From IMG/VR virus record IMGVR_UViG_2703718859_000008: DNA of 6,524 nt; one strand, given 5' to 3'. The notes under the pieces were generated by a model, which made no database searches, was not told where the DNA came from, and saw nothing but the letters and a program-made list of their open reading frames with translations. Each line of letters starts with the position of its first letter. Position 1 is the stretch's first letter. The position numbers were made by a program, and so were the translations under genes. The stretch comes from a virus (taxonomy: Duplodnaviria; Heunggongvirae; Uroviricota; Caudoviricetes). This document shows positions 2,587 through 6,524 of the stretch, piece by piece.

Positions 2587-2818
2587 AACCCCCCCCATTT
2601 TCACAATCAGCAATCAGGATAGCTTTGGCCTCATTCAGCGCCATATCAGCACTAAGTTGCATAACCGCCAGCGAATGAGGGACGAAAGTCCCGGCATATT
2701 CTGTTTCACTGGTGGCGTGCTTATGTGCCCTGTCCGCGATAACAGAAATATCAATCAGCGCGTGCATCAGCGTTTTGATGGCTTCGGCGGCTGCGTCCGG
2801 TGTGGTTTTATTGTGCAT
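2579..2818 (-). CDS. hypothetical small protein (79 aa, MHNKTTPDAAAEAIKTLMHALIDISVIADRAHK...)
   Basis: C-terminal part of the 228-aa track ORF. The portion upstream of the ATG at 2818..2816 is Pro/Arg/Leu-rich and looks like off-frame translation. AGGGGGA Shine-Dalgarno about 6 nt upstream of this ATG. Confidence 0.45.
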   Translation of the reverse strand: MHNKTTPDAAAEAIKTLMHALIDISVIADRAHKHATSETEYAGTFVPHSLAVMQLSADMALNEAKAILIADCENGGGYA

Positions 2819-3368
2819 AGGTTTCCCCCTGGCGAATACGGGCGGCAAATACAGCAACACAACCGGACGGGCAACGGCTACGCGCTTCGCGTTCCGTCCA
2901 GGCGGTGACGTGGATGATTTGATGGTCTGACGCGCCAAAGATGATAAAGCGCCAGAGAAAGGCGGTTTGAGAATGTACAAGGGTAGGGATAGTAGCCATG
3001 TTGGCAGCCTCCTCAGTGTGGTTAAGATAACCGCCACCGGAAACGCCAATTTCGCTGGTGGCGGACTGTACAGGGTTGGCGTAACCGGACACTGAAGAAA
3101 CCGGCGCGGATTGCTCCGCCCCCGTACAGCCCACCATTGATAAGGTGTGACTATGCGGCACAAAAAAACACGCGGGGCGCGTGTTATGCGCTTCAGTTTT
3201 GCCCAGGACGCCAATCCCGGCACCCGTTTTATGAGGTGCGCGGGAATCATAGCTATTTTCGACACTGGCGATCAACTGGTTTTTTTCTCCGATATTCAGG
3301 GCCAGAAAACGCCACACAAAGGCCGTTTGTGTGTGTACAAGGTGTGGTATATGATTTACGGCAACCAT
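2808..3368 (-). CDS. hypothetical protein with two paralogous small modules (IPxLVHxQTAFxWRF motif twice) joined by a Gly/Ser/Ala-rich linker; possible in-frame internal start at 2999
   Basis: 186-aa ORF, first gene after the repeat-bearing intergenic region. GAGGAG Shine-Dalgarno 6 nt upstream of ATG 3368. A second in-frame ATG at 2999..2997 is preceded by GAGGAGG and begins the second copy of the motif. Differences between copies fall largely at third codon positions, consistent with protein-level conservation. Confidence 0.5.
   Translation of the reverse strand: MVAVNHIPHLVHTQTAFVWRFLALNIGEKNQLIASVENSYDSRAPHKTGAGIGVLGKTEAHNTRPACFFVPHSHTLSMVGCTGAEQSAPVSSVSGYANPVQSATSEIGVSGGGYLNHTEEAANMATIPTLVHSQTAFLWRFIIFGASDHQIIHVTAWTEREARSRCPSGCVAVFAARIRQGETYAQ
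3161..3184 (-). terminator. intrinsic-terminator-like hairpin plus T7 tract inside the coding region of the 186-aa ORF
   Basis: On the minus strand, 8-bp stem AACACGCG/CGCGTGTT with a 3-nt loop, followed by a run of T (plus-strand A7 at 3161-3167). In frame it encodes NTRPACFF. Confidence 0.3.
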
Positions 3369-3439
3369 AACGGCTCCTCGTTTACGTTGTTGGTTAGAAG
3401 CCCCGTTACTGCTCCTACAGTGCGGGGTTTCGTCTTTTC

Positions 3440-3545
3440 GTACATGAGATACACATAATCATCATGTGAGATACACGTTACATTGATGTGATATACATTT
3501 CAAGTTTTTTATATCTCACTTTACTGTATAGTGATATACACACAA
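3440..3545. promoter_or_regulatory. divergent promoter/operator region with phased GTGA(G/T)ATACAC repeats
   Basis: Direct copies at about 3445-3455 (TGAGATACACA), 3466-3476 (GTGAGATACAC), 3488-3498 (GTGATATACAT) and 3531-3543 (GTGATATACACAC), spaced about 21-22 bp or twice that. One inverted copy at 3511-3520 (ATATCTCACT). Lies between the start of the minus-strand operon (3368) and the plus-strand 100-aa gene (3563); AT-rich. Confidence 0.5.
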
Positions 3546-3562
3546 TAAACTGGTGATTAATT

Positions 3563-3865
3563 ATGTCCGTATACAAAAACGCAAAATCTCAAATGACAAC
3601 GCTCAGAGTCCCTCACGATGTCATGCAAGGCATGGAATCCGTTAAGCTGGACGGCGAGAGCAATGCAGGATTTATCGTAACCGCCATGCGCGGAGAAATA
3701 GCACGCCGCCAGGCAGAAGGCAGCGGAGAAAATCCCCTTGTGTCTTCACTGGATGCTCTGGCTAAGGTCGAACAAATCGGCATCAAAGCAGCGGAAGAAA
3801 TCGGGCAACTTGTCACCGTTGCACGCGAAGAACTCCAGCGTCGCAAGGCCAAAGAAGCGGAATAA
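3563..3865 (+). CDS. small putative DNA-binding regulator (100 aa; possible ribbon-helix-helix-like N-terminus), function unconfirmed
   Basis: Only convincing plus-strand ORF. GGTGA about 8 nt upstream of the ATG. N-terminal MTTLRVPHDV segment followed by predicted helices resembles a beta-strand-then-helix DNA-binding fold. Charged helical C-terminus. Followed by a plus-strand terminator. Confidence 0.5.
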   Translation: MSVYKNAKSQMTTLRVPHDVMQGMESVKLDGESNAGFIVTAMRGEIARRQAEGSGENPLVSSLDALAKVEQIGIKAAEEIGQLVTVAREELQRRKAKEAE

Positions 3866-3943
3866 TCCACCAGCAAACCACCACACTGATCACATTGCCC
3901 ACCAGCCAGCAAATCGCTATGATGTTCGGGCTTATGTTTAGTG

Positions 3944-3972
3944 TTTTCCCATTGGCGACCGCCCCCGGTCGC
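3944..3972 (+). terminator. rho-independent terminator for the 100-aa gene
   Basis: Stem GGCGACC (3944-3950), loop GCCCCC, stem GGTCGCC (3957-3963), followed by TTTGTTTTAT. Located between convergent genes (100-aa gene on plus, alpA-like gene on minus). Confidence 0.55.
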
Positions 3973-4000
3973 CTTTGTTTTATGTGTCATATGCTCCCCT

Positions 4001-4225
4001 TTACGCTGCCTTACCTGAATTAATGCGATCCCGGCTTTTAACCCATTCCATAACCTCGGACAGCAGCCAACCTACAGAACGACCGCCCAGATTAAGGCGT
4101 GACGGAAATCGCCCTTTTTTCTCCAGTTCGTAGCGTGTAGTACGACATACTCCAGTTAACTTACGACATTCATCCTCACGGATTACGCGATCTGATAGTG
4201 ATTGAAATTGTGTATTTTGATTCAT
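4001..4225 (-). CDS. alpA: AlpA-family (Phage_AlpA / excisionase-like HTH) transcriptional regulator
   Basis: 74-aa ORF. The segment CRKLTGVCRTTRYELEKKGRFPSRLNLGGRSVGWLLSEVMEWVKSR matches the conserved AlpA pattern (HTH, FP, LGxRSVGW, EW..R) as recalled from memory. Position near a P4-type integrase is typical. Confidence 0.8.
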   Translation of the reverse strand: MNQNTQFQSLSDRVIREDECRKLTGVCRTTRYELEKKGRFPSRLNLGGRSVGWLLSEVMEWVKSRDRINSGKAA

Positions 4226-4260
4226 AAAAAAACGTCCTCGAACGTTGCCGAACGAGGACG
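4226..4260 (-). terminator. intrinsic terminator after the int/264-aa transcript; hairpin also sequesters the alpA Shine-Dalgarno
   Basis: Minus strand reads CGTCCTCG-TTCGGCAACGTT-CGAGGACG followed by TTTTTTT and then immediately the alpA ATG. The inner part can extend the stem around a GCAA tetraloop. The only Shine-Dalgarno-like sequence for alpA (GAGGA, about 9 nt upstream) is the 3' arm of the stem. Confidence 0.55.
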
Positions 4261-4287: not shown

Positions 4288-4320
4288 GTGTGATATCACA
4301 CTATCGGTACGTGATATCAC
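4288..4320. promoter_or_regulatory. pair of palindromic operator-like sites (GTGTGATATCACAC and GTGATATCAC)
   Basis: Perfect 14-bp palindrome at 4288-4301 and perfect 10-bp palindrome at 4311-4320, centres about 21 bp apart. The second overlaps the stop codon of the 264-aa gene. Core resembles the repeats at 3445-3543. Confidence 0.5.
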
Positions 4321-5111
4321 TTTTGACGTTTCGGAACGTCACCAATATCACGCCCCAAATATTTCTGCCATGTCTGCCTGTGAGTGCTGGGTAGCTCAAC
4401 CCCTCTTTGCGCAGCGATAACCTCTATCATTTCTGCAATTTTGGTTACTGGTGTCTCCTCCAAATCCACATCCTGCATCTCAGGAATCAGTTTTATGAGT
4501 GCAGGTATTATCTCGGCTTTTTTAGCTATGGTTTTCGGAGATTCTCTATCACCTCCGCCATATACAGGTTTTGCCGCATAATCAAAATTCGAAAGTTCAT
4601 TTTCGAAAACGACTAATCTTTCCTCCGGAATAAACAACCCCCAAATTCCAGCTAAATATAGCTTTTTGTAATGTGCTTTTATGGTGTAAAGATGTTGTGG
4701 TTTGACGTCAACAGCATTGTGCGGACCTGATAATTCAACATCCACAAGATACTGCGACGGAATTGCAAAAAAACCCTTTAAATAATTTGCATACCAACCT
4801 GGCAGTCTGAATATCCCTGTGTCGGTATCCTCAACATAATCATCATTGTAATGAAGATAAGATATCTTATACATATCACTATCTATTACATTTCGTTCTT
4901 TTATCTGTTCAACATAATAACTTTCGCTATCATCTTCAAAAATCACTCTAGCAGAGCACTTATTCTCACTTATTAATAAGTCGTTTTCACCAATATATGC
5001 ACATATTTCAAGTCTATTGGTTGCCCCAAGATGTAGAATATCATCCACCGTGCAGCCGAGTTTTTTTGCTGCCATAGGCAAAGTATAATATACACGAGGA
5101 AAATCTTTCAT
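4317..5111 (-). CDS. uncharacterised 264-aa protein with N-terminal HTH-like segment (excisionase/AlpA-like HTH_17 pattern) and unknown C-terminal domain; AT-rich cargo gene
   Basis: AAGGTGG Shine-Dalgarno 6-7 nt upstream. ATG overlaps the integrase stop (ATGA). N-terminal YYTLPMAAKKLGCTVDDILHLGATNRLEI resembles a helix-turn-helix. Region about 4400-5100 is visibly more AT-rich than the rest of the window. Confidence 0.7.
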   Translation of the reverse strand: MKDFPRVYYTLPMAAKKLGCTVDDILHLGATNRLEICAYIGENDLLISENKCSARVIFEDDSESYYVEQIKERNVIDSDMYKISYLHYNDDYVEDTDTGIFRLPGWYANYLKGFFAIPSQYLVDVELSGPHNAVDVKPQHLYTIKAHYKKLYLAGIWGLFIPEERLVVFENELSNFDYAAKPVYGGGDRESPKTIAKKAEIIPALIKLIPEMQDVDLEETPVTKIAEMIEVIAAQRGVELPSTHRQTWQKYLGRDIGDVPKRQK

Positions 5112-6328
5112 TTAGCCACCTTCAGCATAACAATATTTTCATGATTTCCAGCCAGCACATCGAGACGCTCAACCCATAGATTCAGAGCGTCCCGTTTCGC
5201 CTGTAAATAGCGTGAATGGTTATAGGTTTTTTGCTGACCGGGCATCTGATGCGCTGTGATGTGCTCCACGATATGCGGATCGATACCTAAATCGTTCAGC
5301 ATCGTTGTAAACGTGTGGCGAAAGTCATGCAGCGTCCAGTGTTCCTGGTTAAGCCGCTTATGCGCATTTCGCCCATATTGCGCTACCGTGGTATCTTTTT
5401 TCAGTTCTCCGAGCAATAACCCTGTATGTCGGTTCTGCTCCACCAGCTTCTGAATGAACGGCAAAATGCCATCGGGGATTGGCCTGAATATCGTTACCTT
5501 CGTTTTGCTGTGCTCTTTTGGCACTGTCCACAACATTTCTTTCAGATCCCATTCTTTGATCTCTGAAAGTCTGACCTCTGCCGTTCTGCACCCGAACACA
5601 ATCAGCAAGCGCATTAACGCGCTGTAGTAAGGCGCGAACACATCACCATCGATAGCGCGTAAAATTTCCTTTAATTCGCTGTTACTGTGCACCCTCTCGC
5701 GAATTTCTGCTCTCTTACCCACATCGCTGACGATCAAATCGTCCAGGGCATTACTGAACGCGTAGCGCCTCCTGCGGCAGAACTTTAGCGCCTGTTTGCA
5801 GGTTTGCATGACGTGCCCTGCTGCTACTGGTGCTTTTTTTCGTACACGGTCAAAACATGCGATCCACTGCCTTGTATCACATTTATCAAGAGGAATTGCC
5901 CCTATATGGCAAATGATGTGCTTATCCATACGTTGCACCAGCTTTATGTAGTCTTTGCGGTTATCCTTCGCATATTCATCCAGCCAGTAGTTAATCGCCT
6001 CCTTCACCGTAACGGGTTTTAGCGCTTCCTGTACTGTGGAGCACAACTCATAACGGGGGTTTTTACCCTCAGCCAGCCATGCCCGGCACTGTGCGCGTTT
6101 TTCCCTTGCAGCTTTCAGCGACAATTCAGGGTAAGCCCCCAGCTTTAACCGCTCTGCGGCAACCTCACGCCCTCCCGTTCGGTACCGGAAATACCAGGTT
6201 AATTTGCCGCCCTTTGAGTGTTTAATCTCCAGCCCGCCCCCGTCGGAGTAAAAACGCTCTTTTTCTGCCTGGACAGCCACCAATTTTTTTAACGTTGAAT
6301 CGCTCAGTTTGTTTAGTGCCTTTCCCAC
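5108..6328 (-). CDS. int: tyrosine recombinase / P4-type phage integrase (N-terminal arm-binding DUF4102-like domain)
   Basis: C-terminal catalytic motifs HDFRHTFTTMLNDLGIDPHIVEHITAH and a downstream Tyr. N-terminal GGGLEIKHSKGGKLTWYFRYR matches the arm-binding domain of P4-family integrases. Track ORF runs to 6439, but its first 37 codons are Cys/Val/Leu-rich and start on an unsupported GTG. The in-frame GTG at 6328..6326 is preceded by AAAGAGGA and begins ...GKALNKLSDSTLKK, typical of this family. Confidence 0.85.
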   Translation of the reverse strand: MGKALNKLSDSTLKKLVAVQAEKERFYSDGGGLEIKHSKGGKLTWYFRYRTGGREVAAERLKLGAYPELSLKAAREKRAQCRAWLAEGKNPRYELCSTVQEALKPVTVKEAINYWLDEYAKDNRKDYIKLVQRMDKHIICHIGAIPLDKCDTRQWIACFDRVRKKAPVAAGHVMQTCKQALKFCRRRRYAFSNALDDLIVSDVGKRAEIRERVHSNSELKEILRAIDGDVFAPYYSALMRLLIVFGCRTAEVRLSEIKEWDLKEMLWTVPKEHSKTKVTIFRPIPDGILPFIQKLVEQNRHTGLLLGELKKDTTVAQYGRNAHKRLNQEHWTLHDFRHTFTTMLNDLGIDPHIVEHITAHQMPGQQKTYNHSRYLQAKRDALNLWVERLDVLAGNHENIVMLKVAK

Positions 6329-6339
6329 TATCAGATCCT

Positions 6340-6524
6340 CTTTCCTGTCCTCCAACCTCAAAAAACTGACCACACAACTGACCACACATTTCGTTGAAGC
6401 TCTACGAACAACGACGAACAACAACAAACAAGAAAACACAATAATTCAATACATATCAAACACATACACAAACAACCACGAACACCCCCGAACCACAAAA
6501 AACACTAAATGAGAAAATACGGGT
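6340..6524. repeat. strand-biased AC-rich tract with short tandem repeats upstream of int (possible promoter / arm-site / att-proximal region)
   Basis: Plus strand is almost devoid of G and T over about 180 bp. Tandem ACTGACCACACA x2 at 6365-6388 and CGAACAAC x2 at 6405-6422. Immediately 5' of the integrase start. Confidence 0.35.

Follow-up and report, generated by a model that had tools for sequence, protein, structure and literature searches.

A conserved, helically phased repeat array upstream of ylcI as a probable operator of the YlcI/YnfO protein in capsid-forming PICIs

The window analysed here is a 6,524-nucleotide stretch of viral DNA (IMG/VR record IMGVR_UViG_2703718859_000008) that spans only the int-to-helicase half of an island (Table 1). 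A P4-type integrase gene, a 264-amino-acid open reading frame (ORF) and alpA lie to the right. To the left, a minus-strand operon whose first ORF starts at 3368 runs leftward through an isrK-like RNA, a C4 RNA, an Icd-like frame, small ORFs, a DUF4222 gene and a RepA-type helicase gene. Between the two lies a rightward gene for a 100-amino-acid protein with its ATG at 3563. The C4 RNA scores above its Rfam gathering threshold and lies upstream of the Icd-like frame, the arrangement of a P1-type immI RNA module. The Icd-like domain corresponds to residues 137–180 of a 186-amino-acid ORF (2808–3368, minus strand) that matches Pfam Phage_ASH and the NCBIfam Icd-like family and spans both RNA genes; RefSeq relatives have only short Icd-like pieces annotated where this ORF runs. 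The Phage_ASH and Icd-like 'protein families' may partly be translations of conserved RNA genes.

The missing half of the island can be seen in relatives. A near-identical Escherichia coli locus (L001) is 95.7% identical over window positions 3300–3900, and its operon continues co-directionally into genes for SSB, PerC, capsid, protease, portal, connectors, HNH and TerS/TerL, giving an island of about 15 kb that lies beside rcnR. A second locus (L002) has the same layout with a primase instead of the helicase. Both carry int, alpA and a replicase gene together with their own capsid-to-TerS/TerL genes, and neither has tail or lysis genes. By this gene content, the window represents the left half, for regulation and replication, of a phage satellite of the capsid-forming phage-inducible chromosomal island type (cf-PICI). 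The element type is common, with regions homologous to it in 1,311 of 5,426 complete E. coli genomes.

Table 1 Features of the window around the repeat array
Feature	Position	Strand	Description
RepA-type AAA_25 helicase	416–1825	−	
C4-type antisense (immunity) RNA	3054–3141	−	In the P_L operon; Rfam RF01695, 77.6 bits against a gathering score of 45
isrK-like RNA	3163–3239	−	Early in the P_L operon; Rfam RF01394, 66 bits against a gathering score of 50
Leader hairpin	3401–3427	−	Two-part, conserved, in the leftward 5′ leader ahead of the RBS and the ATG at 3368; followed by a conserved CTCTAACCAC-like box
Site 1	3444–3454	+	ATGAGATACAC; 1 mismatch; in the transcribed leader of the leftward promoter (about +15 to +25); kept in class-1 relatives
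Site 2	3466–3476	+	GTGAGATACAC; 0 mismatches; covers the final 2 nt of the P_L −10 and the predicted P_L start
P_L, putative leftward promoter	3475–3503	−	−35 TTGAAA (reverse complement of 3498–3503), 17-nt spacer, −10 TAACGT (reverse complement of 3475–3480)
Site 3	3488–3498	+	GTGATATACAT; 1 mismatch; in the leftward-promoter spacer, abutting its −35
P_R, putative ylcI promoter	3504–3532	+	−10 TATAGT (3527–3532); poor −35 GTTTTT (3504–3509)
Site 4	3509–3519	−	GTGAGATATAA; inverted copy; 2 mismatches, the weakest match; within the P_R spacer; paired with site 3 by the mirror symmetry
Site 5	3531–3541	+	GTGATATACAC; 0 mismatches; covers the final 2 nt of the P_R −10 together with the predicted +1; paired with site 2 by the mirror symmetry
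ylcI	3563–3865	+	100-amino-acid YlcI/YnfO-family protein; proposed array binder
Hairpin with T-run	3954–3973	+	Terminator-like, downstream of ylcI; unidirectional, with no T-run on the minus strand
AlpA	4001–4225	−	
264-amino-acid ORF	4317–5111	−	Between int and alpA; no family match
P4-type integrase	5108–6439	−	

The DNA between the leftward operon and the 100-amino-acid gene contains five copies of the 11-bp motif (A/G)TGA(G/T)ATACAC, the fourth of them inverted. A preliminary description of this DNA had reported four direct repeats and one inverted repeat about two helical turns apart between the small-gene/helicase operon and the 100-amino-acid gene, and both the repeats and their location are borne out. 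Start-to-start distances within the array are 22, 22, 21 and 22 bp, and this two-turn spacing places all the sites on one face of the DNA. When the pattern from the preliminary description is allowed up to two mismatches, it occurs 8 times in the whole 6.5-kb window against 2.35 expected, with five of the eight matches inside the 98 bp of the array. Agreement comes from a motif-free search of the 135 bp upstream of the 100-amino-acid gene, in which the best 9-mer, scored on both strands with at most one mismatch, has five sites; this number was reached by only 2 of 2,000 dinucleotide shuffles, with the regular phasing not counted. The centres of sites 2–5 (3471, 3493, 3514 and 3536) are mirror-symmetric about 3503.5.

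The 100-amino-acid protein matches the 42-residue N-terminal YlcI/YnfO profile NCBIfam NF041551 over residues 8–49 (68 bits against a cut-off of 30), and its RefSeq relatives are likewise annotated YlcI/YnfO; we refer to the gene as ylcI. Relative to the ylcI ATG the five sites lie at −118, −96, −74, −53 and −31.

Two putative promoters can be placed within the array. A scan of positions 3250–3700 with the sigma-70 consensus called no promoter, so the assignments rest on positional conservation among relatives. In the leftward promoter (P_L), which scores about 8 out of 12, a (G)TCAAG element, which reads TTGAC on the minus strand, and a TAAnnT-type box are kept in position. In the rightward promoter (P_R) the −10 position is occupied by a TATAAT, TATACT, TATAGT or TATATT box, with no recognizable −35. 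The two would stand back to back with their −35 regions adjacent and predicted starts at about 3468 (minus strand) and about 3539 (plus strand), some 70 bp apart, and so polymerase binding at one is probably exclusive of binding at the other. On this map, one site per promoter lies in the spacer beside the −35 and another covers the −10 and +1; both appear to be positions of repression.

Other signals surround the two transcription units. The hairpin in the leftward leader is present in 15 diverse loci, with compensatory changes in three of its seven pairs. Downstream of ylcI the hairpin and T-run would act on rightward transcription only, and an ORF that begins just after alpA (ATG 3990) runs antisense through ylcI; transcription reading through from alpA would thus converge on ylcI. 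In the annotation of RefSeq relatives this ORF corresponds to a truncated Icd-like pseudogene. We considered whether positions 3866–4000 might be a duplication of the icd leader and found no convincing alignment.

We compared the region with loci drawn from one-genome-per-species contigs (18 loci), from IMG/VR (80 loci) and from several annotated E. coli regions. Sites at about −120, −98, −76, −53 and −31 from the ylcI ATG recur in 20 diverse loci (Escherichia, Xenorhabdus, Photorhabdus, Enterobacter, Erwinia, Serratia, Yersinia, Pantoea and others), so that the geometry is kept while the motif sequence varies with lineage. The 230 bp upstream of ylcI in these 20 lineages follow one plan. The left half contains the leftward ORF start, a GC hairpin, one or two sites, a minus-strand TAAnnT-type box, a further site and (G)TCAAG; the right half contains a T-tract, the inverted site, a TATAAT-like box, the last site, an RBS and the ATG. 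Among close relatives that share the motif of the window (class 1), the sites are invariant or nearly so and the spacers between sites 1 and 2 and between sites 2 and 3 vary, a pattern of conserved sites and drifting spacers that reads as a phylogenetic footprint. The same geometry recurs in 101 loci. Together with the footprint and the placement of sites over the −35, −10 and +1 elements of two predicted promoters, this supports the earlier view that the divergent control region contains an operator array.

The sequence of the motif partitions perfectly with the predicted N-terminal β-strand of YlcI over the 101 loci, with cross-class counts of zero or near zero. Proteins with the class-1 strand KSQMTT[LI]RV (n = 21) are paired with five or six copies of TGA(G/T)ATA(C/T)A; these loci have none of the motifs of other lineages, save for zero to two copies of GATACAC (M3), which itself overlaps the class-1 motif. 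The strand KSQLTTVRV (n = 52) goes with three to five copies of GAAA(C/T)AC and KSQSLTARI (n = 17) with four copies of (C/A)TTACA(C/T). Rarer pairings are KSQ[LVI]KN[IV]RI with A(A/T)TACACA (n = 3), and KSQIKNVRV with ATGCACA, KSKQISIRI with (G/A)AATCACA and KSQQINARF with GAAT(C/A)(C/T)CA (n = 1 each). In all there are about eight motif classes, and at least that many. Between classes 1 and 2 the β-strands show conservative differences only (M11L and L14V/I), which suggests that specificity would rest largely on the N-terminal arm; the arm is SVY in class 1 and ATAN or PTPN in class 2, in which the YlcI sequence begins MATANKNAKSQLTTVRVPL.

A comparison of the window with L002 locates the change. 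Identity is 95–100% over window positions 3318–3437, falls to 30–55% over 3438–3572 and is at least 85% from 3573 onwards, with the exception of one 20-nucleotide bin at 75% (3613–3632). The swapped block therefore consists of the array and the first codons of ylcI, and there are additional point changes at ylcI codons 11, 14 and 18. These mosaic boundaries fit a specificity module. The operators lie only 20–120 bp from the DNA encoding the YlcI N-terminus, so part of the covariation between class and protein could reflect co-inheritance alone. In the roughly 15-kb islands L001 and L002, a search for the class motif, which the preliminary description had proposed for related islands, finds it at the array and at no further position.

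The array tracks YlcI and varies independently of AlpA, Int, the helicase and the 264-amino-acid gene. The preliminary description had named the 100-amino-acid protein, AlpA and the 264-amino-acid protein as candidate binders. Covariation with the YlcI N-terminus, and with that alone, speaks for the first and against the other two. The case for AlpA starts from published experiments, in which EcCIEDL933 and other PICIs require AlpA for induction, and from position, alpA being 460 bp distant and oriented toward the array; the repeats would then be AlpA sites that switch on the leftward operon. AlpA proteins 97–98% identical to that of the window are nevertheless found with class-2 or class-4 arrays (L043, L055, L094 and L097), as are proteins 91% identical to it (L047, L060 and L096), whereas loci with class-1 arrays include ones whose AlpA has no more than 31–50% identity. 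The site positions suit repression and not activation, islands of the O157:H7 EDL933 type have AlpA and no array, and a different repeat upstream of alpA (GTGATATCAC, two copies) travels with alpA and not with YlcI class. We regard AlpA binding to this array as very unlikely. Operators of the 264-amino-acid protein are a still poorer fit, with a likelihood close to nil: the gene is in the same element and the preliminary description judged it to encode an HTH protein, but the protein has no Pfam match and a search for homologues gave the window and L001 and no other locus, while about 100 loci that do not have the gene possess arrays with this geometry.

Iteron plasmids and SaPI origins have 17–22-bp iterons phased at about 22 bp beside AT-rich DNA. 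The array, with its 22-bp phasing and the AT-rich T-tract at 3505–3510, resembles such an origin, and its repeats could be iterons bound by the RepA-type helicase; six loci (L009, L011–L014 and L019) even have a consensus DnaA-box-like TGTGGATAA beside the leftmost site. We give this reading very little credence. The window array has no DnaA box, and repeat class is not inherited with the replicase: one locus (L085) has a helicase 97% identical to that of the window yet class-4 repeats, and another group (L021) combines class-1 repeats with a replicase of the primase type and an AlpA of 50% identity. A separate cluster of CCCCACTTTT iterons at about 205–420 does follow the helicase. It comprises at least five copies in both orientations that flank AT-rich DNA (about 280–320) immediately downstream of the helicase gene. 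At least five CCCCACTTTT copies are present in 10 of 13 helicase-bearing loci and none in 84 of the 89 other loci, independent of YlcI class. This cluster is probably the replication origin of the island. The TGTGGATAA element of the six loci, all from outside E. coli, lies about 105–115 bp upstream of ylcI, where the window has site 1.

A binder from outside the island, such as a helper-phage repressor, Cro, an antirepressor or a host protein, is harder to separate from YlcI. Helper phages are published to control PICI induction, and tight linkage could mimic covariation if the YlcI N-terminus merely hitch-hikes with the operators. Against such a factor stand the number of classes (at least eight) and the concentration of YlcI changes in the N-terminal arm and at the predicted DNA-contacting positions 11 and 13, with the remainder of the predicted DNA-binding domain and the C-terminal helix largely conserved between classes. 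The adjacent gene is also predicted to encode a DNA-binding fold, and the slot has been replaced as a unit by other genes with repeats of their own. In one locus (L101, 7268–7502) the ylcI slot holds a 57-amino-acid Arc-like ribbon-helix-helix (RHH) ORF with its own GGTAATTACC palindromes, and in another (L103, 1890–2124) a 58-amino-acid Arc-like RHH ORF with its own palindromic repeats GGTATACAWTGTCA. Both slot genes have the YlcI C-terminal ending ELQQRGIEPKG and are followed by the same downstream operon, so the slot behaves as an exchangeable repressor–operator cassette. A tblastn search with YlcI found no match in 50,697 phage records, a result that bears on YlcI homologues and says nothing about unrelated phage proteins. 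We consider an external binder improbable. Sites for CRP or another host factor were rejected, as the sole resemblance is a TGTGA half-site in class 1 that is missing from the other classes.

The N-terminus of YlcI is predicted to be an RHH DNA-binding domain of the Arc/Mnt/omega type. In the AF2 model an extended segment (residues 11–17, with the strand at about 11–16) is followed by helices at 18–27 and 34–52, a short linker and a long helix at 58–99; the first three elements have the β-α-α order of an RHH monomer, and the strand is unpaired in these monomer models. Pfam PSK_trans_fac, which we take to belong to the RHH clan, matches 20 of 23 YlcI homologues weakly (E values 0.001–0.02, best 0.0011, below the gathering score). 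Alignments by hhalign to the Mnt and Arc sequences are both weak. That to Arc (7.7% probability) places the strand in register, with KSQMTTLRVPHDV aligned with KMPQFNLRWPREV, and pairs YlcI R15, T13 and M11 with Arc R13, N11 and Q9, respectively. Q9, N11 and R13 are the base-contacting residues of Arc. R15 is invariant in YlcI, matching the near-invariant CAC end of the sites. A Foldseek search of the PDB with the full-length model returned no meaningful match. The C-terminal region gave a marginal hit to the Hef helix-hairpin-helix in a profile search of PDB sequences (E = 0.012), which we discard because the AF2 model has one continuous helix there. This helix has a 3–4 hydrophobic spacing but also an invariant glycine (Gly73). 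One Xenorhabdus vietnamensis contig (L010) carries two ylcI genes of the same class in opposite orientations about 4.6 kb apart (at about 5191 and about 10108), and so co-resident copies of one class exist.

We propose that the repeats are the operator array of the adjacent YlcI protein, which would repress both the leftward operon and its own gene; we hold this to be probable on the comparative and structural-modelling evidence above. One YlcI dimer would bind each site of about 11 bp, and dimers two helical turns apart would be linked through the C-terminal helix. The preliminary description had called the array cooperative, a property deduced solely from its two-turn phasing. At a distance of 22 bp the RHH cores cannot reach one another, and cooperativity, if there is any, would depend on the C-terminal helix. 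Sites 3 and 4 would each serve one promoter from the spacer by the −35 and sites 2 and 5 from over the −10/+1, with site 1 in the leftward leader. With the sites bound, RNA polymerase would be shut out of P_L, the presumed source of transcripts for the isrK-like and C4 RNAs, Icd, the small ORFs and the RepA-type helicase, and probably also for the replication and packaging genes further downstream. As occupancy rises, YlcI would occlude its own promoter too. As at P_ant and P_mnt of phage P22, ylcI expression could benefit indirectly when the leftward promoter, the stronger of the two, is repressed.

The switch as such would be ordinary, an RHH repressor acting on divergent promoters; what is new is the protein family, the host element and an unusually clear specificity series. 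A 22-bp centre-to-centre spacing is unusual for RHH operators. In P22 immI, Mnt and Arc act on the divergent, overlapping P_ant and P_mnt through single operators of 17–21 bp with half-sites one turn apart, whereas the window has four or five sites at two turns; similarity of Mnt and Arc to YlcI in sequence is insignificant, and the P22 operon starts with arc-ant while that of the window starts with P1-type isrK/C4 RNAs and Icd. The RHH proteins omega (of the inc18 plasmid pSM19035), ParG and CopG bind arrays of direct and inverted repeats. The omega heptads are contiguous, with a 7-bp pitch at which neighbouring dimers touch; by contrast, sites of about 11 bp at a 22-bp pitch would have to be bridged by another domain. 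NikR is an RHH tetramer that binds half-sites about two turns apart on the same face of the DNA through a separate tetramerization domain. The two-turn, same-face geometry of the array is similar by analogy, but YlcI has no ACT/metal-binding domain, offers a single C-terminal helix as its candidate oligomerization element and would bind more than two sites.

The operon itself recalls the c4-icd-ant immI region of phages P1 and P7 and the P4 CI RNA region in its C4 RNA and Icd-like frame. The P1 immI promoter is under the control of the protein repressor C1 at Op51. In the window the proposed repressor is instead a divergently encoded RHH protein with its own array, and a helicase and satellite genes lie downstream in place of ant. 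Stl of the Gram-positive PICIs (SaPIs) is also an island-encoded repressor whose gene diverges from the replication and packaging operon, a likeness of function only. Stl proteins are large HTH proteins that helper-phage proteins inactivate, and we know of no interaction of that kind for YlcI.

Control of Gram-negative PICIs and cf-PICIs has been thought to lie with AlpA, which published work identifies as master activator both in Gram-negative PICIs and in the cf-PICI EcCIEDL933, and an island-encoded repressor has not been described so far. A recent cf-PICI preprint treats the gene next to alpA as a variable region of unknown function. With the proposed RHH repressor and its phased, mirror-symmetric array on the replication and packaging promoter, that gene would gain a concrete role, and YlcI and YnfO, both in the E. 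coli y-ome, probably a first function for their N-terminal domain; in the literature library that we searched we found no functional study of YlcI, YnfO or DUF3950 and no RHH regulator of PICIs. 'Master regulator', the term used in the preliminary description, does not suit the binder of this array: AlpA holds that position, and the ylcI cassette is optional, since EDL933-type islands have no divergent gene in the slot. The roughly eight operator classes, each paired with defined residue changes, provide material for studies of RHH recognition and for orthogonal repressor–operator pairs.

A wider reading, which we put forward as speculative and rather unlikely, is that YlcI is the long-missing, Stl-like maintenance repressor encoded by a large subset of Gram-negative PICIs and cf-PICIs. 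The swappable N-terminal arm and strand would, with the operator array, define at least eight 'immunity' specificities. The invariant C-terminal PLxSSLDALxxxExIG would be the surface at which a helper-phage protein relieves repression, unless convergent read-through from alpA does so. Induction would then require two keys, activation by AlpA and derepression of YlcI.

Two further elements lie on the alpA side of the window. The GTGATATCAC repeats are perfect 10-bp palindromes (4290–4299 and 4311–4320), 21 bp apart, that overlap the stop codon of the 264-amino-acid gene and lie just upstream of a TAGAAT box before alpA. They resemble the class-1 motif, and we considered them as additional YlcI operators; they are kept in two loci whose slot regulators are of other classes (L103 and L104), and so belong to the alpA module and not to YlcI. 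An AlpA autoregulation site and a site for the upstream protein of 240–264 amino acids are candidates for their function. A GC-rich hairpin (CGTCCTCG-N12-CGAGGACG) with T7 after it (4226–4258, minus strand) directly precedes the start codon of alpA, and equivalent hairpins with different stem sequences are present in L005, L018, L060 and L096. The hairpin looks like a terminator or attenuator between a putative alpA promoter and alpA, and could be the point at which a helper phage turns on alpA by antitermination.
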